Source: Botryllus schlosseri
Lineage: Eukaryota
Assembly: GCA_051294905.1 (NCBI GenBank)
Contig: CM119371.1
Span: 23,128,001 to 23,192,000 of the forward strand
Reading direction: 5' to 3'
Length of the DNA: 64,000 nucleotides
Positions 29,478-62,186 of this stretch are shown here, piece by piece. The position numbers and the translations under genes were made by a program. The notes beneath the pieces are model-generated. The model was not told the origin of the DNA. It was given only the letters and a program-made list of their open reading frames with translations, and did not search any database. Numbering within the stretch: the first letter of the stretch is position 1; the number at the start of each line of letters is the position of its first letter.

Positions 29478-30121
29478 GCGGTGACTAGACTGGACTTGTG
29501 CATTTTGAGAATTTGCGTGACTTCAGTAATGACATGCCTTGATGAGAGAGTGAAATACAATTTTTATTAGAACTGTCGTCTACATATATGCGCATGCGCA
29601 TTAACATCATTTTTACATATCAATAACACCATTGCGACGTGACGAATATGACAAAATACAATTTTGTGAAGCTAAAACTAGTGTAAATCTATTAGTATAT
29701 GTGTATATCGATCGATTTACCGCTCACTGACATTGTCGACGAGGAAGCGCTATACCTTTCAAAGTGCACAGAATATAGGTTGGAAATATTAACATCTGCT
29801 CCACCACAGAATTCCGTGTGATAATGTATAGAAAATCAACCAAGAAAAAACAAATCGTCGCAATCTCGCTATACTGACTTCAAGCCTTTGCCGTCAAATA
29901 CCCGATGCCAATTGACAAGAAAAGTCTGGCCAAGTCTAGCGGGCACTGCTTAGAAAAAATGAATCGACGGAACATCTCACTATACTGCGTTCAAGCCTGG
30001 TGCCGTCAAAGAAGCGATGCCTGTCGACAAGAAAGGTTTGGTCAAGGCTAGCGGGCACAAGAGGTCCCTTTCGCCGTCTCGCAATTTTGCGTTGAACCCG
30101 ATAACCGCCAAGGGTGTGGAG

Positions 30122-33100
30122 CAGTGATTCCCAAGTGCGGCCCCAGCTAGCCTTCGTGCGGCCCCCACAAACATATTAGGAAATCGATTTACGACTTAAA
30201 GTAAAATATCTATATCTATAAAATACTGTTGTCTAGCTTGGAGTCTGGAGTTATTAATTAGGATTGCAGGACAGTTGTCTGTAGACTGCCAGAAAATTCT
30301 GTTCGATAACAATTATTTACCATTTGTAGACGCACAATAATCAATATATACTGAAATCACAGCGAAAATCGCATTCTTCTTGAGCTTTCACTTGTAAATG
30401 CCCATTTATAGCGAAATCTTCAAACCAAATGCATACAATCCCCTGTCAAGTGCTTAAGCTATTTCATTTTAGATGTCGGCTAACAGCTTATTACTCGATC
30501 ATGCTATTCCTCAATATATTTTACTCAAAATTCGATGTTCGTCTGTATGTCTTGATTTTGCCAGTGTGAGTGTACCATGCTGGAATGGGTCATGAGATTG
30601 CCTGTGCTACTTCTCGATGATGTCTTGTAGCAATGTAATAATTTTATGGCTTTCATCCACGTATTTATTCGTTAACTTATTTTCCAACGGCAATTTCGCA
30701 GCAGACTTATAGATAGACGGCAAGCCGTATGTGTTGTGTCACAACCTCCAGCTTCAAGGCCAAAATCTCCTATTTTGTTCCGTGACCGAATTTTAGAGGC
30801 TGCTATAGCAGCAGGATATATCCTTAGTTCTTGAAAGACGATTCAAAATTATGTTTTATTAGATTCAATATGACAGGTCCAATCTATGATATAACAATTG
30901 GGTATGTGTCCGAACTCGGTGACCTTTCGAGTTACGCTTATGCAATCTCTCGAGTTCTAGTCATCTCTGCAGATATAATTAGTCAGGTGAGAACATGAGT
31001 CGTGATCAGTGTGTGCTCGGTACGCCGTTTACGCAGTTTTACGTTTGTGGGTGCCACTGCTTTGCTTGCCTATAACCTGGCCGTAACACTCCAGGATCGT
31101 GTACGAAACACTTTCGGACGGGCTTAGAAAGACTAGGGCTAATCGATTTGTCTCACTTTCGGGACGCGAATCCAACCATACAAATCGGGTCGGAGGCGCT
31201 GCAACACTTCGCATGGTACAATTAAAAGGCCCCAAAGTGTCATGCGAATGCTCTTTGGAGGTAGTTAGTATGTGTTGGTAGTCTTAGTCGGCGCTTGCGT
31301 AATCTCCACCGCGAAATGATAACACATGCTACTAAGGATGCCCCGACGATTGATTCGTGGCATATGTACGATTCTTAGTTCGCGTACAGTACATTCGTAC
31401 GTTCGTTTCGTTGCCTTGGCCATATTTAAATTTGTATATTCTGAATCAGTGCGACACTTGCTTTCGATTAAGACCAGACATATTAGACATATTAAATTTG
31501 GACGCTCGGATCCCCAGTTATAGGGCAACCAATTCTGCTACTTCTACCGGGATCAGCAGTAGGCCTCCCGGCGTTTAAACCGTGTGTCATGTGTTGCGCA
31601 TCAATCCTTATGTTAGAAATCTAGGGCCAAGGCAAAACCCGGCAGCAGCTATCCCGTTCTCCTCGATTTTACTCTATTTTGTGAACTTTTTATGGACCTA
31701 AAGCAGTCACAAATTCTATAAATCCGCGATAGGTTAATCAGTCATTTGGTCAAGTTTTGGGTATATTAAAGATTTGAATGATGTCAGAACAGCCTTCAAA
31801 GAAAGCACGTAAAATTCAGCAGGAATGTCGTGTTTTTAAAGTGAATGGGAAGAAAAGTATTTTCATATTGAGGTGGGCAACAAAGCCCAATGCCTTATAT
31901 GTCCTGTGGCGATAAGTAGTGTAAAATCTTATAACATTGAGAGGCACTACTAAACTCATTCTTCAAAATATGATTGCTACCAAGGAGAATCACGGAAAAG
32001 GAAATTGGAATCCCTCAAGTCGGCACGGAATAAGCAAACAATTATGTCCAAGACTAGTAATGAATCTGATGATATTACCCAAACGTCATATAAGGTGAGC
32101 CATCTAATTGCTCGCAATATGAAGCCATACTCGGATGGTGATATAATGAAGCAGGCTATAGTTACGTTTGCAACAGAATGCTGTTCAAGTTCCATAAAAC
32201 AAAAGGCAAGAAAGTTGCAGCTGAGCAATACTACAGTAACACGGCGCATTGAATGTATAGCAAACGACCAACGTGATCAGCTTCTTGACAAATCGAAAAC
32301 ATTTGTGTGTTACTCTGTCGCGCTTGACAGCTCAAAAGATCTCACCGACACAGAGCAATTAGCTGTGTTTATTAGGGGAGTCATGCCGGATTTTACGATT
32401 TGTGAAGAATATCTCACTTTGCGTTCTATTCATGGCACAACTAAAGGAACAGATATGTTTCGCGAATTTCGTGCTACTCTTGAAGAAGCACATTTGGATT
32501 CATCACAGTTGGTTGGAGTAGCAACGGATGGCTGTCCATCCATGCTTGGAGCAAATCAAGGGCTTCAGGGGCTCATCAATAAATGGCGAGAAGAGTATAG
32601 TCTTGCTCCAGTGACATGGCATCATTGCATTTTACACCAAGAAAATCTGGTTGCTAAGTCACTCAACATGTCTAATGTAATGGATGTGGTAATAACAACA
32701 GTGAACTGGATCAGAGCAAACGCACTTAAGCATCGGAAGTTCAAAAAGTTTTTAGCAGATGCTGACGCTGAGCATGGTGACGTAGCCATGTTTACAGCCG
32801 TTCGATGGCTAAGCCGCGCTTCATGTCTCAAACGATTTTATGACCTTCTTCCAGAGATTAAAACGTTTGCTGAAGGAAAAAAAGATGTTTCTCAACTTGG
32901 CGACGAAGATTGGGTTGCCGATTTGGCGTTTTTGTGGATATCACTACACACCTTTCTACTCTCAATCGCACTCTACAGGGCAATAACAAGCTCTGTCATG
33001 ATTTGTATGGCACGACAACTGCTTTCATTAACAAGCTTTGTCTCTGGAAAACGTAGCTTGGAGATGGTGTTACAGCACATTTTCCAACACTATCTGGTCA

Positions 33101-33712
33101 TAAAGCCAATGCATCATTTGGTGAATACAGCAGGCTTATCAGCAACTTGATTGATGAGTTCAACCGGCGCATAGACGGATTGAATGATTTTCTGCCCATG
33201 ATGAAAATGTTTTCCAATCCTTTTTCAGTTAATGTAGCCACTGCGCCTGAAAATTGTCAATTGGAGTTGCTAGACATGCAATCAGATATCGAGCTGAAGC
33301 AATTATTTAAGAGTGAAGACTTACTTGAATTTTGGAGTCAAGTTCCTGGCGGAAAGTATCCCAACTTGATAATCAATGCACAGAAAAACGCTTCTCTGTT
33401 TGGATCAACTTCAATGATGACTCCAATGACTTCAATGACTCCGATGACCACCTCAAGCAGCTACTACGTACTGCATCATCTGCAATTACTCCTCGCTTTG
33501 GCAAACTTCTTGAATCTCAAAGCCAATGCCATGTTGGACATTAAATTGATTTTCGTATTTCCTTCTTGTTAGTGTTTCAATTCGTTCTTCATTGGTACGT
33601 GCTTTGATGCTTCATAATTTTTGCTATACTTGATGAGTGTATTCGTGCGGCCCCAACTGTACTCTGACATTACAAATTTGGCCCTGACACCGACAAAGTT
33701 TGGGAACCACTG
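30122..33712 (+). mobile_element. hAT (Charlie/Buster, GTF2IRD2-like) DNA transposon, copy A-specific
   Basis: TIRs CAGTGATTCCCAA / TTGGGAACCACTG; TSD GTGTGGAG / GTGTAGAG; empty site at ~61368 in copy B. Confidence 0.9.
31778..33544 (+). pseudogene. GTF2IRD2/Buster-like hAT transposase, disrupted
   Basis: N-terminal zinc-finger-like CLIC..ERHY*TH, then LSNTTVTRRI, SVALDSSKD..QL, ATDGCPSM, HCILHQE, VRWLSR and LFGST. Frameshifts near 31840 and 32930; internal stops. Confidence 0.9.
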
Positions 33713-35899
33713 GTGTAGAGTGTAGACCAAGCAGTCGACAAGATCAGATTGGCAAACTCAAGCGGACACGGTTTCGAAACATTTGTCCGTGGAAAGCAGA
33801 AAAATTCAACGTCCACAAGTACGAAAAGCAGGAATGAAACAAACGCGAATCTCGATTCGAGCACACGATTGCTTGGAACACAGCGGACACACACAAGAGA
33901 GGAGTTCCGCTGCCTAAAAGTCAAATTGCAATAAACAGTTTTGCAAAGATCTAAATTCGGAACAAACATCAAGTCTGTGTCGGAAGATATCAAGATCGCT
34001 GATCGTAGAAAAGAAAGCTGTGAATCAGACATGAGGATACGCAAAGCACCGCCAAACCAGGATGAAGAAGAATGTGCATCGGTGGAAATCGACATCCTAC
34101 CAGCGTCAGCGCTGCCACATGTTCCGCAGGAGTGTCGTATTTTCAGTTGCGATGGTTGCAGGAAAGGTTGTCTCGTGCTAGCAGCCTCGACACGATGTTG
34201 AAGATATCTGACATTGTGATGAAATCCACCAACAACACGCTCTCACAATGCACGAATAACACTTTTCTGGTGGTGTTTTTATCTTCGGAACTGTTTGATC
34301 TAGATATTGCGACGATAAAACATACCAAAGATGTGTTGAAATCGTAGAAACTTTCTGCTTAATTACCATCCCGAAAGCAACTCCACCATATTTTGAAGCC
34401 AAATCCGCATATTGTTTATAATATACCGTCCACTGAATAGTTTTTAGTTCGGGATTCATGTAGGGTTACCATATTTTGGTGGAGAAAATTCCGGACACAC
34501 TATAGCGCCAACTAGCTGATTTTAAAATGAGTTACGACACACTGTCTGTCAATATGACGTCACACGGGCAGAGCTTTGCCTATCGACCAGAGGTGGGCAC
34601 CACTCACGATCCTGATCAGAAGCCGCTATGCAGCTATAGTGTTATTTGGTTGTGTGCTGTAACCAGGACCGAAACAACATTTTTCCAGCGTCGAAGTAAA
34701 CATTGATCTTGAGCTCACCATAGGGTAATCGACGCAACTTTTGGAGGGCTTACTCTATTCATCTGGTTTCTGTATGCATCTGGTCGTTAAATTTTGTGAC
34801 TGGATTCTGTCTATGACATTGGTTCTTCCATGTACCGCTATAAAATGTTGATCCTATCGCTGCTCACATGATCATGGTTAGCAGTAGAGCTGGTGCAGGA
34901 TGATGACTTCGAAAATGCAAGGAACGTTATTATGTCACACGGGTAGCCTACGTCTATTTATGAGTCTAAATGCCGGTCCGCACCAGCAGGTTGCACAGGG
35001 TTTCCAACCTTTTGTGGTCGCGACTCCATTTCTAACTCGAAAATGATCTGTGGCGCTGCTCGAAATGTGATAAGCTGATTACTGAAAAACTGTCAGTAGC
35101 TTTGGCCAGACTTACTCGTGGCCTATTTTGGAAGCCGATTCGATACGTTCGACATCTACGCGAACCCCAGAAAAAAGACAAACGACCCCCAGGTTTAGAG
35201 ACACCATCTTTGACTAATGCATCGAACTGTCCTTGGCTGACTCTAGGAATATACTGTTCTCCTATAATTGCGATTACAATTAAACTTATTTCAGTAAATC
35301 ATGATTGTTTTTAATAATTCTTGATGTCATGTTTTGCGAGAGCGGTGGTACACATTTTTGTTTGAAATATTTTTTTCGGCAAGAGTTCATAGAAATGAAA
35401 ATATGCAATACGAATAAATATGGTCGCGACTTCGGTCACCACGAAAATATGAGAAACATATAACCGGAACAATACCCGCCATTTACAGTGACGGGGAAAA
35501 GAATTCAAATTATGACATATAAACAGCGATAAATCACATAAATAGAAATGCGAAAATAAATTAACATGGACCAGGGAAGACAGGGCCAGTTAGCCCAAGG
35601 CCAGGGGACACGAACAGACAAGGGCCCCACCAAAAACGCACAATATATGGGGGTGGGGGCCGACAGACAACACAAAAGAAACGGGGCGAACTGGCGAGGT
35701 CCGACTGCAGGCATTATCATAACAATTGTGGTGTGGAGAATAAAATGTTGAATCATGAAGTGGGGGAACTCCTCCCCCTAGCATTTTGGCACCACTCGGA
35801 AAATTAACTCGAGAAACCAAAATCACACTAAGGTCCCTTTTATGTTAAGTTGGGGAGGAGTTCTGTGAATGAAGCCGGTGTCCATGTGCCTGCAATCGA

Positions 35900-37558
35900 A
35901 CCCAGTGATGGCTAGCGGATTAAGCTAAATACCGGGTAGCAAGACACATAACAAATAAAGAACACGTGAAGGGGGGGGGGTCGAGTCCTCTCGTAGTCCC
36001 GTACACTACACCAAGCCTTCCAGGCGCGATGAGAGTCGCGCTGAGAAGCGATCACGGCCCGCTCGGAGACCAGCCTGGACTCGAAGACAGAAACACCCAT
36101 CGCACGTGAGGAGGTCAGGTTCCTGGGGTGGTAACTTCCCAGAGACCCGACCGAGAACGTGTGCATCTCCACCTCCTTGGCCGTGGCAAGAAGGAGAGAC
36201 TCACAGAGGTCCTTGTACTTTGCGTGTTTCAGCGCAACGGCGGCGTCCGTGCTGGCTACTCCATTCTCGAAGGGGCACACCACATCGATGACCAACACCC
36301 GGCAACGATCCGCTAAGATGAGGTCAGGTCTCAGCCGCCTGTTGGCCAATGTGACGTGCTCCCTGCAAACGCGGTCCACATCGCATCTGGAAAAAGGAGA
36401 GGAGCTTGGTATACATACAGTCCAGGAGCACCCCAAGCACCGAATTGTGTCTGGTCGTGATGCTATCCATCACTGGCAGGCAGTGGTTCAGTATGTGGGG
36501 CAGGTCTCAGTATGCTGTCCGCACTTGCAGCAGACCACACTTGGCTCCACACGTTTCCTAAACCGACCCCGGATCGACCGGAGCGGTAGAAGATTCAGTC
36601 GAACTTTAAGCATCCAGCTACGCTCGACTGCCGTCAGGACGTTGGAAGACCGGAGGAAGCGGTTGGAGCTCCCGTTTCGGCTGTGGCACTCCACAGTTTT
36701 TCCCTGTTCGGGAAGCTCTATCCACCGTGTCTTCCAACGTTGGTTCACCTTGAGGTGAAGGTATTTGGTTAGATGACCCAAATCCTGACAGCAGCCGGCG
36801 CCTGATGCCAAGTGATAGAGCCCATCTTCGGTCACGAACCAGCAAGCACCGAGACGCCTAGCAACGGGTCGGACCTCGGTCCAAAGCCCGTAGGCGTCTC
36901 CGTACGCCCTGCAGTCGTGCCCTGTTAGACTCACGCAGTTTAAAAATTCGACTGTCAGGGTCTCCGACGCCTCGGAGACTCGGCAAGTGCACCGGACGAC
37001 CAACGCCAACCTTCCACGCACAACCGCCCGCACAGAGGGGTCAGTGGAATTGACCATCTTGACGTCCTGGGAAAGCCTCAACACGTCCGCTTCGCAGCAG
37101 AGGTTGGGGATTCCCAGACCGCCAGTCGTTAGCCCGGTATGAAAGAAGGACTGACACGCTCTGCTAGGGAGATGTAATTCCGCCATCACCAACGTGCGGA
37201 TACGCGCATCCAGACGACGCAGATCTCTGCGAAAAAACTTGCGGATTCTCAACTGAAAGAGGATTCTTGGAATAACGAACCTCATCAGTGCGAGCAGCTT
37301 CTGAAATGAGGTGAGGTGTGACAGAAAAAGCCTGTCACAATAGGCCTCAAAAGCTTTAAGGGCCTCCCTACCTTTCTCGGTTGCCTGGTACCCCATGTTT
37401 TTGCCCAGTTATCGCCAGAAAGAGTCACGATCGAGGACCCGGACCTCGTCACCATCAAGGCGGAACGGGGCCGAGTCCACGATCGATCGGCTTCCCTTGA
37501 ACCCCAAGGCAAGAACACGACACTTGGCGGGTTTGAATTTCATACCAGACCACCGAGA
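35900..37558 (-). mobile_element. 5'-truncated RLE-type non-LTR retrotransposon (NeSL/Utopia/R2-group-like), RT C-terminus + CCHC + restriction-like endonuclease
   Basis: WSGMKFKPAKC (RT), GGLGIP, CCKCGQHTET (zinc knuckle), LRPDLIL..IDVVCPFENG..KHAKYKDL..FSVGSLGSY (PD-(D/E)xK RLE). Frameshifted. The 3' UTR probably extends to ~35500; the end is not resolved. Confidence 0.85.
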
Positions 37559-38586
37559 AAATTAATCGCACGAATGATATATGTGGATGGCAGATGAAAT
37601 GTATCTTTAAAAATGTTTGCTATTTCATGTAGGTGACTATAATAGTTATGAAAATGGAAATCTTTTGATGTTCGCCCTAGTTGCATATTCTTTTACTACC
37701 TTCATGGCAAGGGTCTACAAAGTCATATGGACTCCACTAAGTGTAGCTTTTCCCTCATGGCTGATTTAAATGAAAATGAATATGATGAATATTTCAGTTT
37801 GGTCTATAGGTTATGGATGACTAATGACTAGACCTGTATTACAAGTGCCAAGTGGCACATTTTGTATTCGATTCCTTTGCCTAACAGATTCTGCTAGTCA
37901 GCTCGTATCTAACTATGGCGTGCAGCGTTATGTGTATTGATATTTGTGATAGGTAAACCCGAATCGCTTGTAATGAACACAGCAAAACTGTGATCTTTTT
38001 TTATAAAAATAAGCACGAATTAGCGAATTCCTTCCTCAGAGAAGACTCAGTCTTGTAAAGACAAAAGAAATGATTTTATATAGAAATATCGTCTTGACAT
38101 TTTTTTCCTGAACCACTAATTTCAGAGCTTTTGCAAACATTTTTCTCAGGGTATTCAAATTTTGCTGCTAATAGTTTGCATCGGTTGAGCAAATTACATT
38201 GCTAATATTTTTCAGTTATATGGACCATATCATTTGAAACTCAATGCGTATACTTGTAAAGCTGAACATAAGAGATTTTGTTGATATAATTTTTCATTAT
38301 ATGCACTATACTTGAAGTTCAATGTGCAATTGTGCATCTCGATATGTAGCATATATATTGTTCCTGATATATGCCTGCAATAAGACTATTATTTACGAAT
38401 ATTTGGCCTCGTTGTGTTAGTAGAGTGACAGAGACAGGGAGCATATTGGCAATATCGTATTACGTACAAGTTGAGTGCACAGCTGGTAAGGGTTGGAAAA
38501 TATCCTTTTGGCCTCTTAATTTCAGGCCAAAATGTTGGATGTGAGGCCGTGTTTTAGTAGGCCATGGTTGACCGAACGGAATGTAG

Positions 38587-40559: not shown

Positions 40560-42471
40560 ATTTTAATTCTCGGCTCTCCATTGAAAGGGTTCCCTTGATC
40601 ACTCGGCCATGATCTGTCTGATAAAAATGTAATGGAATTTCACAATCATATCTTCTTCATAAACCGCGAACGTTGGAGTATGACGATAACAGTAAATCAA
40701 ACTAATCATTATCCTCTCGTTAAAACTGGACTGGACTGAAAACAATTGAATATATTCCGACCTTGTCAGTAAATGACCATAATAAGAATATCATTATAGC
40801 TCCTGTACCACAGACTGGACATACAACAATTGATTCCTTTCCGATCTTATCAGCTAAGATCATATTGAAAATTGAATACGCAATTAGCAATATCTCAATG
40901 AGCGCCAAATGAGACTGGAATTCAAATCAAACAGAAAGTGAAGAAAGTCCGATGATGATTGTGGAGTCATTGTATTGGAATGGTGACGATTTGCTCGCAT
41001 TTACTAAAAAGTTGCCGAGCTGACCGGAGCAAAACGTATATACAAGAGTCAGAATGGAAGGTGTCGTAGTCGCTGCTCATCGCCCTAAAGTTCGCATCGC
41101 GCACAGGCCTAAGGGACCGATTCATGAAGTTATCAAGCCGGTACTTCGCAAGTGGACTGATGATAATTTAAAATTGAATGTGACGCGGAAAAGGAAAGTA
41201 TCACCACTTCGAGTGAATATGTTGAAATGGCTTACCGAAAATTCCGAGGCACCAGCTAAAAAGAAAAAGTCCAGCTTCTCTGGTCAGAAAATATCTGAAC
41301 GCAAACGGGTAGAGGTTAGAAAGCACACCGGAAAAGACACTAACGTGAAGGCACGGCCGGAAACGATTTCAAAGAAAGCACTATATATTTCAAAGTGCAC
41401 CGAATCTGGTTCGGAAATATTGGCATCTGCACCACCACAGAATTTCGTATTAAACTGTATTGAAAATCTACCAAGAAAGAGCAAGTCGACAGAATCTCGC
41501 TATACTACTGCGTTCAGGCCTGTCGTCGTCAAAGACGAGATGATGCCCGTTGGAAATCAGGCGAAACCCAAATCGGGCGCACGGATGATATTACCGCAAA
41601 ATAAACCTGCACTTGACGAGTTCCGCAGCCTAAACTTTAAAGGTACACACGTCAGTACTGCAAAGATCTGAATGCAGAACAAGCCTTAAGTGCAAATCGA
41701 AGGGCGAAGAACGTAGAACCACGAAATCTTATTTAAACCTGAAGAAGCCTAACGTCTCCATTCCCGAAAATGAACCAGTAAAGAGGAAACTTTCGCAGTT
41801 TCGGAATACTGCGTTGAAACCGGTAACCGATAAAGATGTAGACTCCGTCGAAAAGAAAAGACTGGTTAAGTCTAGCGGGCACGGTTACGAAAAATTTGTC
41901 CGTGGAGCACAAAAAAAATCAACCTCCACAATTACGAGAAGCAGCAATGAAACAAAGGCGAAACTCGATTCGGGCATATGATTGGTTGAAACGCCGCATA
42001 CACCCGCAACAGAAGAGTTCCGATCTTTAACAGTAAAATTGCACAAGTCGGTTTTGCAAAGATCTAAATTCACAGCATACATCAAGTCCGAGTCGAAAGA
42101 CAATAATAACGCTTATCATAAGAAAGAAAACAATGCTTCAGATTCGATGATACAGAAAGCACCGCCGACGCAGGACGAAGAAAAACGCGAATCGGTGGAA
42201 ATCGATGTCCTGCCCACGTCAGCCCTGCCATATGTTCCGCAGGAGTTGTATTTTCAGTTGCGATGGTTGCAGGAAAGGTTGTCCCGGGTTAGCAACCTCG
42301 ACACGATGTTGAGAATTCTAATATTGTGATGAAATCCACCAACAACACATTCTCACAATGCACCAACAACACGTTTTCTGGTAGCATTTTATCTTTTGAA
42401 CTTTGTGATCTAGATATGGCGACGATTAAACGCATCATAGATGTGGTAAAATCTGAGAAACATTCTGCTTG
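40560..42471 (+). pseudogene. AF9/ENL AHD-like-domain gene, copy 2 (most complete)
   Basis: ORF pieces 41054-41671 and 41982-42329 are joined by a frameshifted segment (41640-41980). Lys/Ser-rich body; C-terminal YFQLRWLQERLSRVSNLDTMLRI/..LSFELCDLDMATIKRIIDVV; in-frame stops upstream of 41054. Confidence 0.75.
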
Positions 42472-43776
42472 ATTTCCTTCATGGAAACAACTCTATTATG
42501 TTTTTTAGCCAAATTCGCTTTTTTGGAAATGCTGTCTACTGAACAGTTTTTAGTTCAGGATTCATAACACTACGACTATATCCAATTGGTAATTCAAATT
42601 GCCCCAATCCCGGGTGGTCCGCTCCCAACCGCGATCGTTAATTATGCATCTTAAATTTCTAACCCATTTTCCGACGGTTGTTTTGCTGTTGTTTGCAAGT
42701 GTGGCTGCGTATTTCCCATTCACCCATATTTGTCAGAGTTGTGTTTTAACACACTTTTCCTCCTCTGTTGTAGTTACTGTGACAGGACTGCAACAGGAGA
42801 AAACACAAACCCTATTTCAACCGCCATGCCAATTTTGACAATCCCAAAACACCCATTTTGTTGTTAGATTACGTAAAGACATTTTTCATGTATATACAAT
42901 TCTTTCTGGTATGTATATTTTGATACTGTCGTCTTTCAAAATTGTTCGCATTAATTTGGTCCAAATTAATCAGAGTTCAGATGGTACGGTTAGTTGCATC
43001 TGTCAGACAGATGTGGTCAAGATAGTCAACATTGGTACTCTAGTACAATTCGAGTTGATGCCGTAAATTTATACTCGAATACAGTGGTTCCTCTTCCTTA
43101 ACCTTCACTAACCCGCGGAACACTTACGCTTTTCTGCAGGCCTTTGCGACCCGAATGATTAACTTGCGAATCCTTTCGTCTTATATAGTTGTTCAGAAAT
43201 GACATGCAGCCAAATTTGACAGGTTTGTCGAGGTCTATCCGAATATGCGTATATTCGATCGTAGGCTACGTTTTTCGTATGTCAAAAGATAGAAATTGAT
43301 ATTTGGTGACTAGAAATTCAGTCAAAATCAAACAATTGGTGGTGATTCGACGGGACTAGTGGTATTTTGAATATTTGCGTGACTTCAGAAGTGACATGCC
43401 TTGAAAATGGAGCGAAATACAATTTTCATTGGAATTGCATCCTGCAGATGCGCAATAACATCATTTTTACAAAACAATAACACCACTAGGACGCGACAAA
43501 TGTGACAAAAAAGATTCTTGTAAAGGTAAAACCATTGTGAATGTCTTAGTATATATGTATATCCATCACTTTACCACACACTGACATTATTGACGAAGCT
43601 CAATGAATCATACATCCTTCTCGAGTCGACTCACCACTTGAAATTGAATGATTGAAATTGTGAATGTGGTTCACTTGCATTACGAATGGTTCAGTTGATT
43701 AGAAATAATAACAATTCAGGTACAATTCCTCCTGAATTTGAACACAAATTTACACTATATAGTTAGTCCGCCCTCA

Positions 43777-45660
43777 GTTTAATTCTCGACTTTCCATTGA
43801 TAGGGTACTCTTAATTACTCGGCCATGATCTGATAAAGATGAAATTGAATTTTCCAATCCTATCTTCTTCATGAACCGCGAACCTTGAATTGTGACGATG
43901 CAGTACACACAATTAGTTATAATCTTCCCGTTATAACTGGACTGGACAGACAACAATTGAATATTTTTCGACCTTGTCAGCAAAAAATCTCATTATGACT
44001 AGTATGTACCACGGAATAGGCATACAACAATTGATTCTATTCCGATCTTATCAGCTACGAAAAGATTAAAAATTGAATATGCAATTCGCAACATCTCAAT
44101 TAGCGCCAAATGTCTATCAAATCTAACAGAAAATGAAGAGGGTACGATGATAATTGAACACTTGAACAGTCATTGTATTGGAATTGTGACGATTTACTAA
44201 ATAGTTGTCGAGTTGGACGTACGTACGTACAAGAGTGAGAATGGAAGGTAACGCAGTCGCTGCTCATCGGCCGAAAATTCGCATCGCCACAAGGGCCAAT
44301 ACATGAAGTAATCCAGCCAGTACTTCTCAAGTGGCCAAAAGATAACCCGAAATTGAATGGGACAAGGAAAAGGAAATTATCACCATTTCGAGTAAACATG
44401 TGGCTTACTCAAAACGCCGAGGCACCAGCTAAGAAGAGAAAAACAGGGAAGTCTAGCGTGTCTGGTTTTGCAAAATATCAGAACGGTAAAGGGCTGATTT
44501 TGAAAAGTACACCGATTGCGATACTAATGGGAAGGCACAGCCTGCAACGTGGTCAAAGAAAGGTCTTGACCTTACAAATTGCACCGAATCTAGTGTGGGA
44601 ATATTGAGATCTGCGCCAGCATATAATTCCGTATTAAAATGCATTACTATAATCATTAATCAACCAATGAAGAGGAAAGTTTCGCCGTCTCGCGGTACTG
44701 CGTTGAAGCCTGTAACCGGCAAGGGCGCGGACCCACTCGACAACAAACGATTGGCCAAGTCTAGCGAGCACGGCTTCGAAAAATGTGTCGGTGGAACACA
44801 ACAATCAGTGTCGACAAGTGCAGGATTGAAGAAATGCGACACCAGATTCGGGCTCACGAGTGTTTGAAACTCAGCATACACCCCCAACAGACGAGTTCCG
44901 CAGATTGAAAATAAGATAGCATCAGTCCGTTATACAAAGATCGAAATTTGGAACATACAGAAAGTCCAAGTCACAAGATGAAAAGAGAGATCATCAAATA
45001 AAAGAAAACTCTAGTGCAGATTCGACGATACGGAAAGCACCACCGAACCATCACGAAGAAGAAACATATCCCCGTGGGACGCAGAACAAACAAACCTCCT
45101 CAACTACGAAAAGCGGGAATAACAAGACGGCGAAAATCGATTTTGGCTCACAATTGCTTAGAACGCAGCATACAGCCGCAACGGAGTTCCGCTGCTTAAC
45201 AGCAAGATTGCAAAAGTCAGTTATGCAAAGTGCGAAATTAGGAACATACAGACAGTCCGGGAAGGAAGATGTAAAGATCACCGATCATAGAAAAGAAAAC
45301 CATGATTCAGATTCAAAGATACGCAGATCACTACCGAGCCAGTACGAAGAAAAATATGCATCGGTAGAAATCGATGTCCTACCGGCGTCAGCGCTGCCAC
45401 ATGTTCCGCAAGAGTCGTATTTTCAGTTGCGACGGTTGCAGGAAAGATTGTCCCGGGTTATCAACCTCGACACGCTGTTGAGGATATCTAATATCGTCAT
45501 GAAATCCACCAACAGCACGTTCTCACAATGCATCCATGACACGTTTTCAGGTCGTGTTTTATCTTTCGAACTTTGTGATCTAGATTCTAGATAGTGCTAC
45601 GATCGAAGGCATTAAAGACGTGTTAAAATCGGAGAAACTTTCTGCTCAAATTCCGTCACG
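43777..45660 (+). pseudogene. AF9/ENL AHD-like-domain gene, copy 3 (tandem to copy 2, ~3.2-kb period)
   Basis: Colinear with 40560-42471. ORF 45154-45594 ends ..YFQLRRLQERLSRVINLDTLLRISNIV..LSFELCDLDSR*; multiple frameshifts. Confidence 0.75.
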
Positions 45661-53337: not shown

Positions 53338-53353
53338 ATATATATATATATAG

Positions 53354-53750
53354 CAGAGATGAGCGGATTTGAAATTTCTATGTCCTAATCCAATCCAAAT
53401 CCATAACTTTTTCATATTGAAGTCCATGTCCAATCCTAATCCGATTCCAACTGGAATTTCAGAAAAAAAAACTAATTTATGCAATGGAGGGATTCGAAAA
53501 TTTTCTTTCACAACCAACGATTTCACTTGATTCAAGATAACCTAGTAACCATAAGTACATTAATAACTGATCCGAATAAAGTTTGTCGCAATTCCCCACA
53601 CGACATTTCAATCTCCCAGAAAATAGGTAAGTCCAATCCAAATCCTAATCCGTTATGAAAAACATGTCTAATCCAAATCCAATCCAAATTCGACAAAATT
53701 TCACAAATCCTGTTTTTTCAAAACCTAATCCTACTCCATGCTCATCTCTG
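53354..53750. mobile_element. hAT-type MITE with AATCC subterminal repeats
   Basis: TIRs CAGAGATGAGC / GCTCATCTCTG; perfect TSD ATATATAG. Confidence 0.85.
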
Positions 53751-53859
53751 ATATATAGTGACATTAGTCATTTTGCGGTAGTCGCGCGAGAGAGAGATGA
53801 TATTCTTTTTCGCCTGCACCATCGAGATGCTTTGACGACGGAGTTGCGATACGGCCCCA

Positions 53860-54041
53860 TGAGGTCATCTAGTCTGCGCCCACGTTTTTTTTTTCTCCTC
53901 CATGCTATCCGTGATTGCTGTGCGCCTATCAGGATAGCTGCGGATACCAATTTTCGAGTCTTTGGTATGACCCGGCCGGGGATCGAACCCACGACCTACC
54001 GCTCGAGAAGCCGGACGCATAACCATTACACTATCTCGCTC
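53860..54041 (-). mobile_element. tRNA-derived SINE (possibly Meta-domain type)
   Basis: Minus strand: A-box TAGTGTAATGG, B-box GGTTCGATCC, then GGTCATACCAAAGACTCGAAAATTGGTA and an A-rich tract. Subfamily assignment is from memory and unverified. Confidence 0.7.
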
Positions 54042-54726
54042 GAAGATGGAAGATGTGTCTGGCATGATCAAAGGTATACCTGTCCTTCAATTATCAGCTA
54101 AGAATATGCGACCTCTGCACCAAATCTACATATTTAAAACTACTAATTGAGTTAATGCGAGTTCATTTTATTTTTTTCTTGAAGTAACTTTGAGATGTAT
54201 TAACACAATCCCTACATACTTCTATTCGATATTATGATCAATCCAAGCTCGGCACATCACAAATTATGTATCACGGACTCCTTGACAGTACCCTAAATTA
54301 GAACTCCGTGACCCCGGTTGAGACCCAAAAATCTATTTTTTATGAGTATTTTCCGATCTATCGTCACCGCAAGGTTAACTTTATTATCCAATCCGATAGT
54401 GTCAAAAGGAATAGCATATAGATTCGTGGTTGGGAGGGTCTCCACCTATATGTGATAACTTGGATCTTAGGTTCGAGCCTTGGTCGGTTATCGGAAAGCT
54501 TACGTTTCAAGTATTATCGTATGATACGGACTTGAACGTAGCAGTGAAATTAGGGAATATCTCATCTTACAAGTCTACGTTTTCTAAATGCAGCAGATTA
54601 TTCCTAATTAAAATGGATACCTACTTATAGATCATATGATACGAACTCGGACGTAGCAATACCATTAGCGAATATCTCATTAAATAGGTTTACCTTTTCC
54701 AAATGTGACAGGTTTTGTAAATCAAC

Positions 54727-55704
54727 ATGGATACCTACTTAAGTTTTACGGTTATCTTGACCACAATGGCCATGATGATACTGCAGTTAACAAGTGACTC
54801 ATATTGCTACTTTCAATATCGGATGAGGGACGACCTGTGGCCCGCCGTCGACAGCTTTGCCGACATTTCTTACATCGGCTTGGTTCTCGGCTTCTTAATA
54901 ATTGGGCGACTCCTTTTCAAATCATTCGAGGCAATGGACTTTCCGTGCGAAGAGTTACGCGAGTGGCGGAGAGTAATCGGCGCTGAGCTGGTCTCTATGC
55001 TGTTGCTGCAAGCGTTGGTCGAGATTATTCCGTTCCTGTTGATAAATAGGCACATGGTGTCGTCACTGACAGATGAGCAGCTACACGATTCGATGATATG
55101 TTGCGTTTCTCCTCTCTTTTCGGTAGCAACCATATTTGTTGCAGTGCAAATTCCGTCTGAGATGAACAGAAAATATCAATGCCGTTACGTCCCACTGATA
55201 ACTAGATGCTTGCTGTGCTTTAGTCGGCTCTGTTTATTCGCGGCGCGGCTGGCCGTCTTATATTTTGCTGTAAAAGCAGGTGATACTACCTACAAAGTGT
55301 ATTTCCTAATGTTGCTGGTAATGCGCGTTATACTAATTGGTTACATGATCGGAAAATCTCTGTCGACAATCCCCGATTCATTTGAGCAATGGTTCACCAA
55401 CGTCAGCAGCCCCCCGCTGCTTTTTGTCTACTCCATTCTCACACCGATTTTGCGGCATGATGGCAAGGACCGAAGGAGATGGAGGTTACAACTGTTCGTC
55501 GCGGATCAAATTACGATGATGATGATGTCTTCGGTGTTGAATTTCGGAGAACACGCCGATAAAAACAGGATCGTTCCAGGAAACTGGGAGATCCAAGTTC
55601 TCAGCACCAGTGGTTTGCTACTTCTCGGTGTTGCGCTTTATCGCGCAAAGATAGGTTCGATGTACCCGGTGATTCCTGTACGTTTATATTCGGAAACTGC
55701 TTAA
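54727..55704 (+). CDS. XK-related (Xkr-like) multi-pass membrane protein, 325 aa, intronless CDS (copy B)
   Basis: Intact ORF with no indels versus copy A and about 36 aa differences by manual count (~89% identity). Confidence 0.75.
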   Translation: MDTYLSFTVILTTMAMMILQLTSDSYCYFQYRMRDDLWPAVDSFADISYIGLVLGFLIIGRLLFKSFEAMDFPCEELREWRRVIGAELVSMLLLQALVEIIPFLLINRHMVSSLTDEQLHDSMICCVSPLFSVATIFVAVQIPSEMNRKYQCRYVPLITRCLLCFSRLCLFAARLAVLYFAVKAGDTTYKVYFLMLLVMRVILIGYMIGKSLSTIPDSFEQWFTNVSSPPLLFVYSILTPILRHDGKDRRRWRLQLFVADQITMMMMSSVLNFGEHADKNRIVPGNWEIQVLSTSGLLLLGVALYRAKIGSMYPVIPVRLYSETA

Positions 55705-56775
55705 ATTCAAAAAATGGAAATTTTGCTCATGTATTTACAGAAATATTGTTTGCCTTTACGAAATATATAAATTCGGTGTGTTGTCTTTTTCAATTCTATC
55801 CTAATATAAAGACTTGTGTCAATGTACCGGGCAGTCTAAAGTAATTTGATATGTCTACGGCAGTGTTTCATAACCTTTAGTAAACCGCAAAACCCCTGCA
55901 CTAGGGCGGTTCAAAAATAACATTTTTTCCTTAATCTTGCGGGTTACATGATTAAATCGTCAGGTTACCTTAAAAAACGACGCACACCAAATTTGAATTC
56001 ATTCCAACCAATATTCGCAGTTTACGTAGAGTTTGAAAATTTTGAATTTGCCCAGAAACGCTAAAAATTTTTTTTTTCAAATTTTTCTGCTAACCCCATG
56101 AAATTGTAGGGCTGTCTTCAAAGACTATGCAAAACAAATTTTACTCAATTCCAAGCCGTAGAAGCGGAGTTATTCCAGTTTTTCGATGAAAATTCTTGGA
56201 TTATCCACCTATCAAGGATAATCCCAGAATTATCAAAGAAAAACTGATATAACTCCACTTCTACTGCTTAGAATTGAGCCAATAATATGCACATTTTAGC
56301 TCAGAGTCAAAAAACACTAATCGACCACAACACAAATCTCACTAGACATCTAATGCTTCATCATGGATTGCTGAAGTGCAAAAGGACTGCATCAATATAT
56401 TGTTAAAAGAACAAAACCATCAAAATATGATTTCCACACAAAACGAAAGCGTTGTGATGAGTATCATCGCAATTCCGCTATTCCTATTCACCTGGTAAAG
56501 CAGTGCATCCCAACGTTTTTGGATGTCGCAACCGTATTAAAACAGTCGAGCAAGCTCCTTAATAACGAAAAGTTAAAGATTTCTAGCTAGACTGCCTCCT
56601 GGATCTCACTATCCAGCTAATTCAAAAGCATGCGCAATGCACATAGACGCCTATACATTCTATAATGTTATCTTAGCATTGATAGGCGCAGATTGGCTAG
56701 TGTTATAGCCTACATGGACATAAACTTGAGATGTGTATCGTTAATACACCATGCCATTATGTCGTTACTTGATAG

Positions 56776-57344
56776 CAGGGCTGTAATGACTCGAGTCAGA
56801 CTCGAGTCACGATTTCCTGATGACTCGACTTGACTCGAGTCACTTTTTTAAAATACGGAAATGACTCGACTCGACTCGAGTCAATCTGTGTATTGACTCG
56901 ACTTGGACTCGAGTCATTGCGCATGACTCGAACCAAGTCATATGACTCGAAACTCAGGTGGCCAAGACCGACATTTCTAAGAATAGTAAAGTATCCACCC
57001 CATCGGGATTTCGTCTATCGGTACTGGCACTAGAAAATGCGACCAGAAACTGCTAAAAAAGAGAAAAATTAACATATTATTAATTCGAACCATTCGATAT
57101 CACCAAACAGAGTTATAAAAAGTGGGTTTAACAAGACTTTAACTGGAAACTGAGCAGTCAACACAATGACTTGGACTCGGACTCGAGTCATAATACCATG
57201 ACTCGGACTCGACCCTCTGCTCGCTGACTTGGACTCGGACTTGACTCGGTGATGAATTGAAAATGACTCGACTTGACTCGAGTCAAAAGTATTAAAGTGA
57301 GATTGACTTGTGACTCGAAGCCGTGTGACTTGGTTACAACCCTG
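56776..57344. mobile_element. MITE with GACTC subterminal repeats, copy B-specific
   Basis: TIRs CAGGGCTGTAA / TTACAACCCTG; perfect TSD CTTGATAG; empty site at ~19195 in copy A. Confidence 0.9.
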
Positions 57345-60300
57345 CTTGATAGTCCTTCAAGCCTTCATTCATTTCATCTCTTGATTTTCATTCATTTCAT
57401 TCATTTCCATTGGATTATTCGCTGAGTAATATTGGACTTATTGCAATTTAAGTAAAAGGCTGTGAGTGCCGTGGTTGGGAACCACTGTTGTGAAGTGTCA
57501 TCGTTTGTTTGTGGTATTCGTGATGTTTGCCGACGATCATGGTCGTAACACCAGGCTGATATTTCTCATTTTTATTCCGTAGCTGCTGATTTTTAGCCTG
57601 TTGTAAGACACCGCTTTCGCGGGTAAGATGGCGAGTAGGAGCCTAGATAAACCTCCAACAATTATTGTTAGGAATTCCGGAGTCGACCATGATCTGACTC
57701 GAACCCGCTCCGCTGCGTGCACCATTGCACACGCCGTGCCACCACAATGATTCGACTACTGATCGGGTTTAAATGTCTCCAACCAATGATGGCCAAGAGG
57801 GGACGATCATAAATATTATAATGATATGTATGCGTTCGACTTCACGCGGAACCCCTATTCCGTGGGACACTGCTCAAGAGCCCACAGAGCCCACAACAAT
57901 TTGATGTGTCGAAGGATTGAAGGATTTGTTCATCTGTTTGAGAAACGAAACAGTGAATTTGAAATTGACTTTGAAATTGGGAACGTATTTCTCCGTATTG
58001 TGTCGTAATATAGGCTTCCATGGTCTACTTCACAATGCCGTAAATGTGGTACCATATTGATCAAAAGCAGCCTCGAGAAGCTCCATTTTTGGCTTCATGC
58101 GATAGAGATAAATACAATAGTGGGTCACATCATGGGCGATATCGCCCCTAGAGCGCGATTTTGATAACCAGGGGGACGAAAACACCAAAGGAGTGACTGG
58201 GAGACGAAATGTTTGAATGTCCTGTGAGATGTAGGGTGAGATATGGTACCGATGGATCAAGAATTGCAAAATGATCTCTGGCCCCCAAATCTTCAGCCGA
58301 TAAGAACAGATCTTTCGCGGACTCAACACTTTCATACAAGCTGTAACTACCGGATATATATACATGAATAACCATCAATTAATAAATATTAATGAACGTT
58401 CAAAATTTGTTGCTCGACCGTATCATCGGTCCGCATGCACCCGCTGGGTCGGAAGTAACACGACCTGGAGACCTATCAGACATACGCTCAAAAACTTGAA
58501 AGTTCCAACTTTTCTGGCTGTGTAATATAATCTATGATACAGCAAGCCAAAAAAGAATGTTTGGTCGCAACCGTCGAGCAAATAAAAGAAATAATACCCT
58601 AAATGTTGCCATGGAATTACGTTTCGATTTGCGCACAAACTTACAAATTTGAGGGTACATACACATTGCCCGTAAATCGAGATATACCGTATGTGCGTCT
58701 ATGCGTGTAGGCGTGCTTTTTGTTGTTGCATGACTAATTAATCCATCCATTTGTCTTGATTTGGCTGTGGTATCATTGGCCTTAACTCTACAAATTATGT
58801 ATTTGAATTGAAAAAAGTCCACCAAAGGATACTATTGAGTAAAAAATATGTGCCGATATATAGCCTGATACAAGCCCTACACTACACAATAAAATCATTG
58901 CTGGTTCGTTCGTGTTGAATATTTCAAAGAAAAATGAATGCGTCGATCGAAGTTTATTTTACATCCCCCAAAGTAGAAAACATCAGCCCGAGACCCCATA
59001 GCTCATACAGGTCGAAGTCTTTCTACATGTAAGGAAAGATTCTGCCAGCATGCAATTGTAGACAAATTCACGGAGTGTAATCATGGGATTATCACAGAGC
59101 ATTTTCGAGTATTTTTTGCCCCAATGTCTCATTGGTACCACATCTCCCCCCTATTTAAATTAACACGGCCAAAAATGCACGTGAAGACTGCTTATTCTGC
59201 ATATGACGCGAAAGTTGACTAAAAAGAACAAATCAACGGAAAGCAGACGTGGATACCGGTTTTCCGAGCACCTACCCTGATATTTATTTTAGTCAATCCA
59301 TCAGCGATCGGAGGTAATTGAATAAATTTCCCATATATAATGTCCTCTTTTCCGAATCCGTAGTATTGGGGGGCAAAATTTGTGTCGAGCCCGATAAGGG
59401 GGCGATGAGTCGAAAAAGCTTGGGAACCATTGGATACCTATGTACACTGTGGTGTCTCATTCGACGCTTTGAATTTAGAGTGGAGGCTACAACTCCTCTC
59501 GGAAAAATGCATGTGTGTTCTAGTTAATCGGAGAACTATAAAGATTTGGCCGGTATTGCAATGGCAGTGACATCTCTGCTCCGCCTTGTTTCGCTTCCAT
59601 CTCGCTTAAGTCATTATGCAATGTGGTATCTGTTATTCCTATATCGTAGTGTCGCATTCCGGTCGCAAAAATAACACAGTTTCCTGATTTGCAGTTTGGG
59701 TGTTCATCTTCACTATAATGATTTCAACAGAAATTATTGCAATCAAACTTGGCGGTCCGCAGTGTTACTCGTGATTCAGAAAACGTATTGCCAAGTCAGT
59801 ATTCAAGTGGTCAAATATTCTCCTTCGCAAAGCATCCTGAATCTCTCAGGCATACTGAAAGCGAGCACGTCACCTGCACCAACCTTTATGTATGGGATTA
59901 TAATAATTCTACTTACGACTTCGATATGGTTAATTGCGTCAGCAGGTTAATTGCGTCAGCAGCGACATCGCAGACAAAAGAGCTTCGCCCTGTCCATACC
60001 TGTCGTTAAAATAACTTTATCTAATATTTTAATATATGACAACCATCATGCAGGTATTTGCTTAATCGATTTTGTGGAGCTATAGCCTAACGAACGCATC
60101 ACGCGTATTTGAACCTAGTTGTATTGCACATGCAATAGTTCTACTTGGGATATATTAGGGGCTTCCATAGTAAGAATTCTTTACGTATAATATTGAAGTT
60201 TGCGATAGCTTTGAAAAGACGAGAGACTACTGACCGTTTCGGAAGGCGATCGTAAAAATCGAACCCACGCCGAGTACAACCATGTAGTTTGCACTCTACA

Positions 60301-61086
60301 GTACATACATATCCAAAATAACTGATATTGCACGTTCATCTTAGATGTTGTATGTCTTATAAAGTACTAAATGTTGCTCCTACATTGTCCATTTAGACGA
60401 GTGGTTCTCATACTGAGGGGCACATCTGAAAGGGGGAGGGGGAGAATCCGACAGAGAGAAGTGATATTTTTTGAACTCGGAATGAGTTTAATTTGTGCTG
60501 AAACTTACAAGTTTCAACAACGGCAATACTCCCAAATATAGATTTTAGATGTCATAATGGCGTTGTGCCATCGGATTACCGATGATAAATTTTGACAGAT
60601 ATCGGACCTTGCACGGATAAAAAGAGGCGCAAATTGGTGAATGCGTGTATAGCTGTTGGCTTATGCTGTTATTACATTTCTATCAAACATCTGTACAGAG
60701 TGTGTAGAACGGCGACTGTCAAGAATCGTATTTTATGATAGCCCAAAAGTACACATTTGAAACTCTTGCAGAACACATGCGAACGCAGAAACAAATTGTT
60801 TGTTACGTGAAATAGTTTTAATGGCACGCGGCCCGTGTCATTGTTTTTGCTACGAAAACCGATTCTCTGTCGCCAGAAGGAACGCCTCTACACTCTTGGA
60901 ATATTTCATTAATGTTATGTGTTGTGATTTCGGTTATTTATAACCGAATATGTACTCGTTAACGTTTGTTTTGTACCGTTACTACCGTATCTTGCCCGTC
61001 TACTAGTTGTTTGTTTTTGTTATTATTATGTCATACAGACAAAATAGCTCTTACATTTCGAATTTGATTCACCCTATCACTGACGT

Positions 61087-61126
61087 TTCGCTACTGATGA
61101 GGGTCAGTCGAAAAGCTTTTAGCGAA
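61087..61126 (+). ncRNA. Candidate minimal type-I hammerhead ribozyme (Penelope-like), probably degenerate
   Basis: TTCGCTA-CTGATGA-GGGTCAGTC-GAAA-AGCTTT-TAGCGAA: perfect 7-bp stem I, conserved core, palindromic AAGCTT stem III, weak stem II. Confidence 0.55.
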
Positions 61127-61199
61127 TATGAAGTTATTGTTTCGCGTTATTCTGAAGTTCTGTACCACAAGTCACTTGTTCAAACATAAAATTGCACAA

Positions 61200-62186
61200 A
61201 TTTATACTGCGAAGATCTAAATGCAGAACCAGTCTAGCGAATCGAAGGGCGAAGATCGCAGAATGACAAATTATGCTTTAGATTTGAAGCAGCGTAACGT
61301 TTCCAGTGCCAAAAATGAACCCTTTCGCCGTCTCGCAATATTGCGTTGAACCCGATAACCGCCAAGGGTGTAGACCCAGCAGTCGACAAGAACAGATTGA
61401 CCAACTCTAGCGGACACGGTTTCGAAACATTTGTCCGTGGAAAGCAGAAAAATTCAACCCACACAAGTACGAAAAGCAGGAATGAAACAAACGCGAATCT
61501 CGATTCGGGCACACGATTGCTTGAAACACCGCATACACTCACAAGAGAGGAGTTCCGCTGCTCAAAAGTCAAATTGCATCAATCAGTTTTGCAAAGATCT
61601 GAATTCGGAACAAACATCAAGTCCGTGTCGGAAGATATAAAGATTGCTGATCATAGAAAGGAAAGCTAAGAATCTGATTCGAGGATACGCAAAGCCCCGC
61701 CAAACCAGGCACTTGGGTATTGATGTTTTTCCTGAGCTCCTTTATATTGCAGGCGCGACGCAACACCTCCTTCTTTTTGGTCACATTCTGTTCGTGAAAA
61801 CGGTCATATAAGCAAAGATGGGTGCTCTGTCGACTTACTGGGTGTGCTTCGCTACTAAATAGGCTGTCTAGGTTTGAACTGCCTTCATTCAGTATCCATG
61901 CGCATCGGTGGAAATCGACGTCCTGCCAGCGTCAGCGCTGCCCCATGTTCCGCAGGAGACGTATTTTCAGTTGCGATGGTTGCAGGAAAGGTTGTCTCGG
62001 GTTAGCAGCCTCGACACGCTGTTGAAGATATCTGACATTGTGATGAAATCCACCAACAACACGTTCTCACAATGCACGAATAACACGTTTTCAGGTGGTG
62101 TTTTATCCTTTGAACTGTGTGATCTAGATATTGTGACGATAAAACATACCAAAGATGTGTTGAAATCGGAGAAACTTTTTGGTTAA
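61200..62186 (+). pseudogene. AF9/ENL AHD-like-domain gene, copy 4 (5'-truncated, ~190-bp insertion at 61710-61897)
   Basis: ORF pieces 61346-61669 and 61908-62186. The AHD-like segment is frame-intact: YFQLRWLQERLSRVSSLDTLLKISDIVMKSTNNTFSQCTNNTFSGGVLSFELCDLDIVTIKHTKDVL. Confidence 0.75.

Follow-up and report, generated by a model that had tools for sequence, protein, structure and literature searches.

We propose that the four related gene copies on the + strand of the window (the whole 64-kb stretch of DNA that was analysed) are, as far as their anatomy is concerned, very probably a decayed pseudogene array. It is also fairly probable, in our view, that the array descends from a lineage-restricted gene family that was derived from AF9/ENL and encoded a reader-less AHD module. 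AF9 and ENL are normally conserved low-copy readers. A reader-less AHD family is apparently undescribed so far, as in the literature search, with most subscription journals lying outside it, no YEATS-less AHD family of this kind was found and, among the papers listed, AF9 did not occur together with ascidian, tunicate or genus terms. Judged from the sequences, the ancestral gene is one intron-free ORF (~330 aa in the intact relative P0003 and ~470 codons in copy 2), with the order of a basic N-terminus, a long basic low-complexity middle built of repeats, the motif S-V-E-I-D-[IV] and a C-terminal AHD. The copies were duplicated together with their flanks, were temporarily under purifying selection and are now all broken.

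Layout and decay of the copies

Self-BLASTN and tBLASTN over the window place four copies, all on the + strand, where a sequence-only reading of this DNA had put four paralogs (29760-34347, 40560-42471, 43777-45660 and 61200-62186), and the conserved C-terminal motif quoted there (of the YFQLRWLQERL... type) is present in all four. For copies 2 and 3 the places stand but the starts at 40560 and 43777 do not, with the coding signal beginning ~480 bp later, at ATG 41054 and ATG 44241, respectively; copy 1 is likewise present, but its span is mostly transposon. That all copies are disrupted also proved right, with stops, frameshifts or truncations in each of the four.

Copy 1 consists of a mid-gene 5' remnant (29742..30121) and a 3' part (33721..34362) that carries the motif and the AHD, and between them lies a DNA transposon of ~3.6 kb (30122..33712, + strand). 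A deletion has removed the start codon and ~1 kb of 5' sequence, joining the 5' flank to the mid-gene part, and stops are present at 29819-29824 (TGA-TAA), 33932 (TAA) and 34345 (TAG), with a frameshift of +2 nt near 34133. The transposon ends in terminal inverted repeats, and the 8 bp on its two sides (30114-30121 and 33713-33720) are a target duplication that differs at one position; on the strength of these ends and of the traits of the family it is labelled hAT, and Pfam named no transposase in it. Copy 2 (41054..42472; 473 codons including the stop) is the least damaged, having three lesions, i.e., +1 nt near 41635, TGA at 41979 and −1 nt at 42316. A GT..AG stretch near 41643-41677, considered as an intron together with a stop seemingly common to copies 2 and 4, was rejected because a frameshift of +1 nt is what emerges when the sequence is aligned with the internal repeat. 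Copy 3 (44241..45660) has several frameshifts and stops (−8 nt near 44287-44295, +2 nt near 44465, TAA at 44487, further shifts, TAG at 44917 and +7 nt near 45586) together with an internal 219-bp duplication (44845-45063 / 45139-45354). Copy 4 (61187..62186) is truncated 5' at ~61187 and has shifts of −4 and −13 nt, TAA at 61667 and a ~190-bp insert at 61709-61900; its AHD can be read in an open frame over 61902-62186, but no in-frame ATG lies ahead of the domain.

Route of multiplication

The amplification took place at the DNA level, by a 3.2-kb tandem unit and a large segmental duplication. The segmental block (15632..35358, + strand; partner 48454-63154; aligned pieces ~81-92% identical) yielded the pair of copies 1 and 4 and also contains a duplicated membrane-protein ORF. 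The expansion had earlier been thought possibly retro-derived. No run of at least 8 A is present within 1.2 kb after any of the four stops, and no target-site duplication was seen around the gene copies, the flanks of which are common between copies. Since the flanks have been duplicated too, without poly(A) or target-site duplication, retroposition as the route of the expansion is not supported; since such marks decay, an old founding retroposition may have occurred, its marks having since been lost.

If the gene were carried and spread by a DNA transposon or Helitron, its being intron-free and lineage-restricted would be accounted for. However, the unit is not bounded in the window by inverted ends, a target duplication or a convincing Helitron end, the block in which copies 1 and 4 were duplicated is much longer than 10 kb and contains an unrelated ORF as well, and no relative of the family was found in viral contigs, making this route highly improbable. 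Separately, two weak Helitron-like hairpin matches are seen at 45994 and 47153 and have no counterpart at the other copies. An inverted 1-kb pair around copies 2 and 3 (38584-39616 / 47355-48303) was considered as the arms of an element and rejected, being two elements with their own ends each.

The intact relative

A profile search of 1.84 billion representatives gave two matches, of which one is a true relative, P0003, an intact 328-aa protein (E=1.3e-23) from a 1864-nt Logan contig; the other, P0004, was rejected as a repeat-rich unrelated protein of 1832 aa. Word-based protein searches gave none among 155 candidates with copy 4 (lengths 166-2000) and P0003 alone among 25 candidates with P0003 residues 238-328 (lengths 180-574). 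P0003 is colinear with the window copies from the first Met to the stop, with the conserved basic, RKRK-type N-terminal segment of copy 2 (41054..41266) aligning with its residues 1-61, and the additional middle sequence of the copies is an open-frame internal repeat. The ideas of a gene family and of an intron-free coding region are thus both supported, the former by the existence of an intact member and the latter by the colinearity.

Identity of the C-terminal domain

It had been suggested to compare the C-terminus with profiles of AHD and ET, and the AHD is what matched. Pfam PF17793 (AHD) is found in copy 4 at 61968..62153 (25.1 bits, E=1.7e-5) and in copy 3 (21.5 bits, E=2.3e-4), both under the cut-off of 27, and in P0003 above it (35.5 bits); no BET/ET (PF17035) or bromodomain family is found at E<=1 for the pieces of copies 4, 3 and 2 or for P0003. 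On these profiles the C-terminus of the copies is taken as an AF9/ENL-type AHD, with similarity beyond chance. The AHD is ~21% identical to that of human AF9, to which residues 268-324 of P0003 align gaplessly (E=0.63, not significant by itself). The first Atlas match is an AHD cluster (0.90, 205/256 features); the Atlas query with copy 4 gave no usable match, and PDB sequence searches with window copies, copy 4 among them, did not recover AHD/AF9.

In the AlphaFold2 model of P0003 three helices are built at pLDDT 75-81, with an overall mean pLDDT of 53 and no hairpin; the model of copy 4 has pLDDT 52. Among 48,161 chains the best match of the P0003 model is the AF9 AHD (Z 7.4, which falls in the range common among helical bundles; rmsd 2.9, 66 aligned), and the top five are all AHD/ET domains. 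The BET ET domain and the ET/AHD domain of yeast Taf14 are of the same fold family (Z 6.1-6.7, within ~1 of AF9), with the difference that no BET Pfam or bromodomain match is present here and that the sequence profile favours AHD. Foldseek with the model gave nothing at E<=0.001 (E>=2). In the alignment to AF9 (numbering of PMC11094776), all five sequences, i.e., the four copies and P0003, have Ser where AF9 has D544; D546 is kept as Asp in P0003 and replaced by Glu in the window copies, which also have an 8-residue duplication in the AHD hairpin region that is absent from P0003. In human AF9, D544 is needed for the recruitment of DOT1L/AF4 (PMC8022399, PMC11094776).

Start of the coding region and the YEATS domain

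The region of ~0.5 kb upstream of the ATG, common to copies 2 and 3 (40562..41053 and 43778..44240, + strand; 82-85% identical), is probably a 5' UTR or promoter. It could be argued instead that full-length AF9/ENL genes have degenerated into these copies, with YEATS encoded in this region or in a farther exon. In copy 2, 40775-41053 extends the reading frame of the ORF upstream and is broken by two stops only, and the upstream region of copy 3 starts directly after an acceptor-like CAG at 43777, the 5' edge of the homology. By eye, the copy 2 frame bears a faint likeness to the end of a YEATS domain, which we treat as a lead only. Against this, no YEATS match was obtained in any of the six upstream frame translations at E<=10 or from the upstream region in three PDB searches, none of the + frames has a dN/dS significantly below 1, and the upstream identity is the same as that of the non-coding flanks (76-83%). 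Moreover, P0003 starts from the same Met and gives no YEATS match in Pfam, its 5' end being possibly incomplete and a distant upstream exon being possible. We thus regard this reading of the copies as very unlikely. A weak PEA-15 match upstream (E=0.03) lies on a constraint-free frame and was rejected as chance. Since the YEATS reader is not found in P0003, the upstream frames or the PDB searches, the label of adaptor given to these genes earlier is not supported in its canonical sense.

Selection on the copies

For the C-terminal 91-92 codons, dN/dS is 0.27-0.31 with p<5e-4 in five of the six copy pairs, and for the pair of copies 1 and 4 it is 0.49 (p=0.13), where the constraint is not significant. 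The N-terminal segment 41033-41266, compared between copies 2 and 3, gives 0.26 (p=2e-4), and its RKRK-type sequence appears NLS-like. For the 20-codon segment holding S-V-E-I-D-[IV] the values are 0.05-0.43, and for the disordered middle 0.42-1.03, never significantly above 1. The description of the family as fast-evolving therefore applies to the disordered middle but not elsewhere. The C-terminus having been under purifying selection, the ancestral copies were therefore functional, and the earlier view of birth and death agrees with this purifying selection followed by lesions.

Expression and further copies in the species

Among the runs listed as containing the sequence no RNA run was named. 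Reads of 4 of the 24 listed runs were mapped to 40000-46000 only, with copies 1 and 4 outside. Bulk RNA gave 5 partial reads of 1934 million letters in X5 and 8 of 1497 million in X9, almost all on an upstream repeat, with the coding parts essentially uncovered. In run X2 many more contigs lie over the conserved blocks, with a summed depth of 584 at 42211-42411 vs 32-53 for each contig listed, which is not to be read as a copy number. Some of these contigs are without certain window lesions, e.g., the base at 42316 is restored in 2 contigs; no full-gene contig is among those listed. Further paralogous or allelic sequences are thus present in the species, which supports the earlier idea of an expanded family. 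Run X1, which is RNA by guess, has pieces of 96-99% identity in 10 of the 14 coding bins vs 0 of the 12 single-copy non-coding bins; the bins depend on one another, and no piece covers the AHD.

These data bear on whether the family is dead in the species, i.e., was once functional, with the remaining copies all pseudogenes that were passively multiplied by local duplication. The breakage of all four window copies, the near lack of coverage of the coding parts in X5 and X9, and the profile search, where no close protein of the same array was obtained among all 1.84 billion representatives, are consistent with it. The X2 contigs free of window lesions and the X1 pieces confined to the coding bins argue against it, and we consider extinction of the family somewhat unlikely.

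The motif before the AHD

The motif S-V-E-I-D-[IV] is present in all five sequences (34079-34096 in copy 1, 42192-42209 on the + strand just before the AHD in copy 2, 45361-45378 in copy 3, 61905-61922 in copy 4 and residues 246-251 in P0003) and partially matches the AHD ligand consensus, LxVxIxLxxV/L (PMC8022399). It can be supposed that this strand fills the groove of its own AHD, either within one chain or by swapping in a dimer, so that the domain is stably folded and is closed to AF4/DOT1L or gated. The domain would then act via other surfaces or assemble with itself into a scaffold; the AF4-AF9 fusion that was engineered for NMR would be the model for such a self-liganded AHD. The core V-x-I-x-[IV] occurs in five of five sequences and is the sole such core within P0003, the motif segment is constrained as given above, and in 20,000 shuffles a match arose in the 30 residues that precede the AHD in 0.7% and anywhere in 7%, the motif and the window having been picked post hoc. 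The AF4-AF9 fusion structure 2LM0 aligns weakly from model residue 246 (79 residues, Z 4.9, rmsd 5.5). By contrast, none of the nine segments scanned has the strict consensus, Ala or Glu standing in place of the first Leu and the final hydrophobic residue being absent, and AlphaFold2 places residues 245-250 at pLDDT <50 with no sheet built. Prediction of a complex of the P0003 AHD (259-328) with the upstream segment (227-258) gave a score of 0.31 vs the mark of 0.34, with controls at 0.00-0.02, which we weigh on neither side. Self-liganding appears to us rather unlikely.

Discussion

Based on the preferred reading of a reader-less AHD module, the intact protein would be nuclear and would bind partners of the LxVxIxL type, i.e., the orthologues of AFF/AF4, DOT1L, BCOR and CBX8. 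Without anchoring to acylated histones, the module would titrate or redirect these partners, and its partner preference is probably altered, given the Ser that all five sequences have in place of D544. Whether the module would act by this competitor/adaptor mechanism, drawn by analogy, we hold to be evenly balanced.

The family resembles AF9/ENL (MLLT3/MLLT1) in having the AHD at the extreme C-terminus after a long disordered basic/Ser-rich region, in the three-helix arrangement of the model and in the F-[DE]-L-C motif of strand 2. It differs in that no YEATS is found, that it is apparently intron-free and multi-copy, that a ligand-like motif precedes the AHD, and that besides the Ser at D544 the window copies have D546E, S549D and the hairpin duplication. 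Human MLLT3 has 11 exons (PMC11947615). A human precedent for an AHD-only product is provided by the short YEATS-devoid MLLT3/MLLT1 isoforms, s-MLLT3 (PMC11947615; see also PMC13169612), where the reader is likewise lost and the AHD kept; those isoforms arise from an internal promoter of the canonical gene and leave the AHD unchanged, whereas here separate, diverged, duplicated genes have their own N-terminus.

A more far-reaching proposal would be that an ascidian lineage evolved multi-copy, free-standing, reader-less AHD proteins with their own LxVxIxL-like strand, the self-liganded or gated AHD adjusting how the super-elongation complex and DOT1L are recruited in a restricted cell type and the copies turning over by birth and death; we think it quite unlikely. 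Because the four window copies are pseudogenes, the interest rests in the family rather than in the locus. A separate, selected and amplified AHD-only family would parallel the YEATS-less AF9 products of human stem cells and leukaemia. The AHD is otherwise disordered until partner binding, and if the motif closes the groove, the family would provide a natural case of an AHD that folds by itself.

Identity of the domain

The assignment of the family to the ANC1-homology domain (AHD), the C-terminal partner-binding domain of AF9/ENL, is sound when the Pfam, profile, alignment, Atlas and structural evidence are combined. In Pfam, copy c4 (61187-62186) matched AHD (PF17793) with E=1.7e-5 and 25.1 bits, below the cut-off of 27, and copy c3 (44241-45660) with E=2.3e-4, and no BET family was returned for the window copies, which bears out the sequence-only reading in its preference for AHD over ET. 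The profile built from the window pieces returned two proteins from 1.84 billion representatives, one being P0003, an intact 328-aa relative (E=1.3e-23) from a single Logan contig of 1864 nt, and the other an unrelated repeat protein that was discarded. No canonical AF9/ENL appeared in that search at E<=0.001, which suggests that the family is distant from the canonical members. P0003 lies above the Pfam AHD cut-off (35.5 bits), its first Atlas match is an AHD cluster (0.90), and its gapless alignment with the human AF9 AHD is non-significant (E=0.63). AlphaFold2 predicts three helices in P0003 (pLDDT 75-81, against 53 for the model as a whole). Of 48,161 chains compared with this model, the five that match best in structure are AF9 AHD (Z 7.4), BRD2 ET (6.7), Taf14 ET (6.6), BRD3 ET (6.3) and a NuA3 chain (6.1). 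Foldseek with this model gave nothing at E<=0.001, Taf14 ranking first and AF9 second.

Copies, lesions and origin of the array

Window self-comparison gives four related copies, all on the plus strand, and three-frame translation with pairwise indel mapping shows all four to be broken, so that the four disrupted paralogs reported earlier stand. Copy c2 (41054-42472, plus strand) has three lesions only and c3 (from 44241, plus strand) has many; in c1 (29742-34362) about 1 kb including the start has been deleted, and a 3.6-kb element, which has inverted ends and is flanked by an 8-bp target duplication, interrupts the copy; c4 is 5'-truncated, with a 190-bp insert immediately ahead of its open AHD frame. 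The insert (61709-61900) is open in a reverse-strand frame and matches nothing else in the window; at its end stands an acceptor-like CAG in frame with the motif-plus-AHD segment.

The expansion within the window is DNA-level: c2 and c3 stand head to tail (ATG-to-ATG distance 3187 bp) with common flanks, and c1 and c4 lie within a segmental duplication (15.6-35.4 kb versus 48.5-63.2 kb), which took in a membrane-protein ORF as well. Positions 63270-63853 match the spacer found after c2, after c3 and before c3, and thus a fifth copy may sit past the window end. The ORF is intron-free, as had been noticed, while human MLLT3 is given 11 exons in PMC11947615, which makes a founding retroposition plausible; the copies, however, retain neither a poly(A) tract nor a target duplication. 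That the gene is transposon cargo is very improbable, with no element ends bounding the gene unit in the window; no relative was found in viral contigs.

Around the copies, two intact-looking, intron-free hydrophobic ORFs (17014-18009 and 54721-55704, plus strand; 331 and 327 aa counted between stops) have no Pfam match and only two relatives found, P0001 and P0002, both Logan-only at 57-60% identity; they represent a lineage-restricted multi-pass membrane protein family. The 3' flank of c1 is broken by a GC-rich minus-strand fragment (35359-37560; ORFs 36488-37408 and 35912-36469), without Pfam match, which looks like the 3' terminal part of a non-LTR retrotransposon of the restriction-like endonuclease type. 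Frameshifted transposase-like ORFs (23774-25574 and 51078-51449, minus strand) were recognised by eye, Pfam giving no name, and two 1-kb non-coding elements in opposite orientations (38584-39616 and 47355-48303; 71% identity) each have TAGGGATG-type ends of their own.

Gene architecture

P0003 is 61% identical to c4 across 84 C-terminal aligned residues and 22-36% identical in the other long pieces, and is therefore much older than the window array. Its first Met corresponds to ATG 41054, from which it is colinear with the copies to the end; residues 1-244 are rich in Lys (14%), Ser (10%) and Arg (9%), with a net charge of +27. Canonical AF9/ENL has an N-terminal acyl-lysine reader, YEATS, whereas Pfam, frame translations and PDB searches found none, either in P0003 itself or ahead of the ATGs in the window, and the family is thus not a canonical AF9/ENL member. 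A hidden YEATS exon is improbable. The 0.5 kb upstream that c2 and c3 have in common is 82-85% identical, about equal to the non-coding flanks (76-83%), and showed no significant codon constraint.

Binding surface and the pre-AHD motif

Using the AF9 numbering found in PMC11094776 and the P0003-human AF9 alignment (E=0.63), each of the five sequences (c1-c4 and P0003) has Ser at the D544 position; at D546, P0003 keeps Asp and the window copies have Glu, the latter also showing S549D and an 8-residue hairpin duplication. D544R or D546R in AF9 is described as lowering DOT1L or AF4 binding (PMC8022399). The same source, with which PMC13126186 agrees, describes the AF9-type AHD by itself as disordered and its partners as having LxVxIxLxxV/L in common. 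A little upstream of helix 1, S-V-E-I-D-[IV] is present in 5/5 sequences and fits the V-x-I-x-hydrophobic core of this consensus but not the whole of it. As a putative AHD-ligand-like strand, hypothesised from sequence, it would be the most novel feature of the family. A self-liganded AHD, occupied by this segment, is rather unlikely; the P0003 monomer model places the motif without confidence. Further alternating-hydrophobic motifs, resembling ET/AHD-binding strands and less conserved than the AHD-adjacent one, are LKLNV, LRVNML and LTVKL (41165-41225 and near 42025-42045) and LKMKL (P0003 189-197).

Selection, other copies and transcription

By NG86 with Fisher tests, dN/dS over the C-terminal 91-92 codons is 0.27-0.31 in five of six pairs (dS 0.36-0.46; p<5e-4) and 0.49 (p=0.13) in the young pair c1/c4; it is 0.26 (p=2e-4) in the basic N-terminal segment and 0.42-1.03 in the middle. 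The low values imply that the gene was functional during much of the paralog divergence, and there is no evidence of positive selection; the rapid evolution previously supposed holds for the middle only.

Four of 24 listed runs (X1, X2, X5, X9) were compared with 40000-46000 at 85% likeness. X2 occupies 29/30 bins, as a DNA-like run would, with many contigs across the conserved blocks, including c2/c3 mosaics; some lack certain window lesions, the base at 42316 being restored in two contigs (depth 84/120), and the extra base at 44471 is missing from all depth shown in X1 and X2. Since no listed contig covers the whole gene, these runs show no intact allele. X1, guessed to be RNA, gives low-depth pieces (96-99% identity) in 10/14 coding bins versus 0/12 single-copy non-coding bins, leaving the AHD uncovered, which is no more than a hint of weak transcription. 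In the bulk RNA runs X5 and X9, of which 6% and 13% were read, there were 5 and 8 partial reads respectively, almost all of them on an upstream repeat. That the family is entirely dead in Botryllus schlosseri is the less probable reading, though the strongest of the alternatives, all of which overlap in part.

Proposed explanation

Literature searches found no description of such a reader-less AHD family. We consider it probable that the locus is an array of pseudogenes whose family encodes nuclear AHD proteins lacking a reader. By analogy with YEATS-less AF9 isoforms, an intact member would be nuclear, carry an AHD without the reader, and would compete for AF4/DOT1L-type partners or redirect them.
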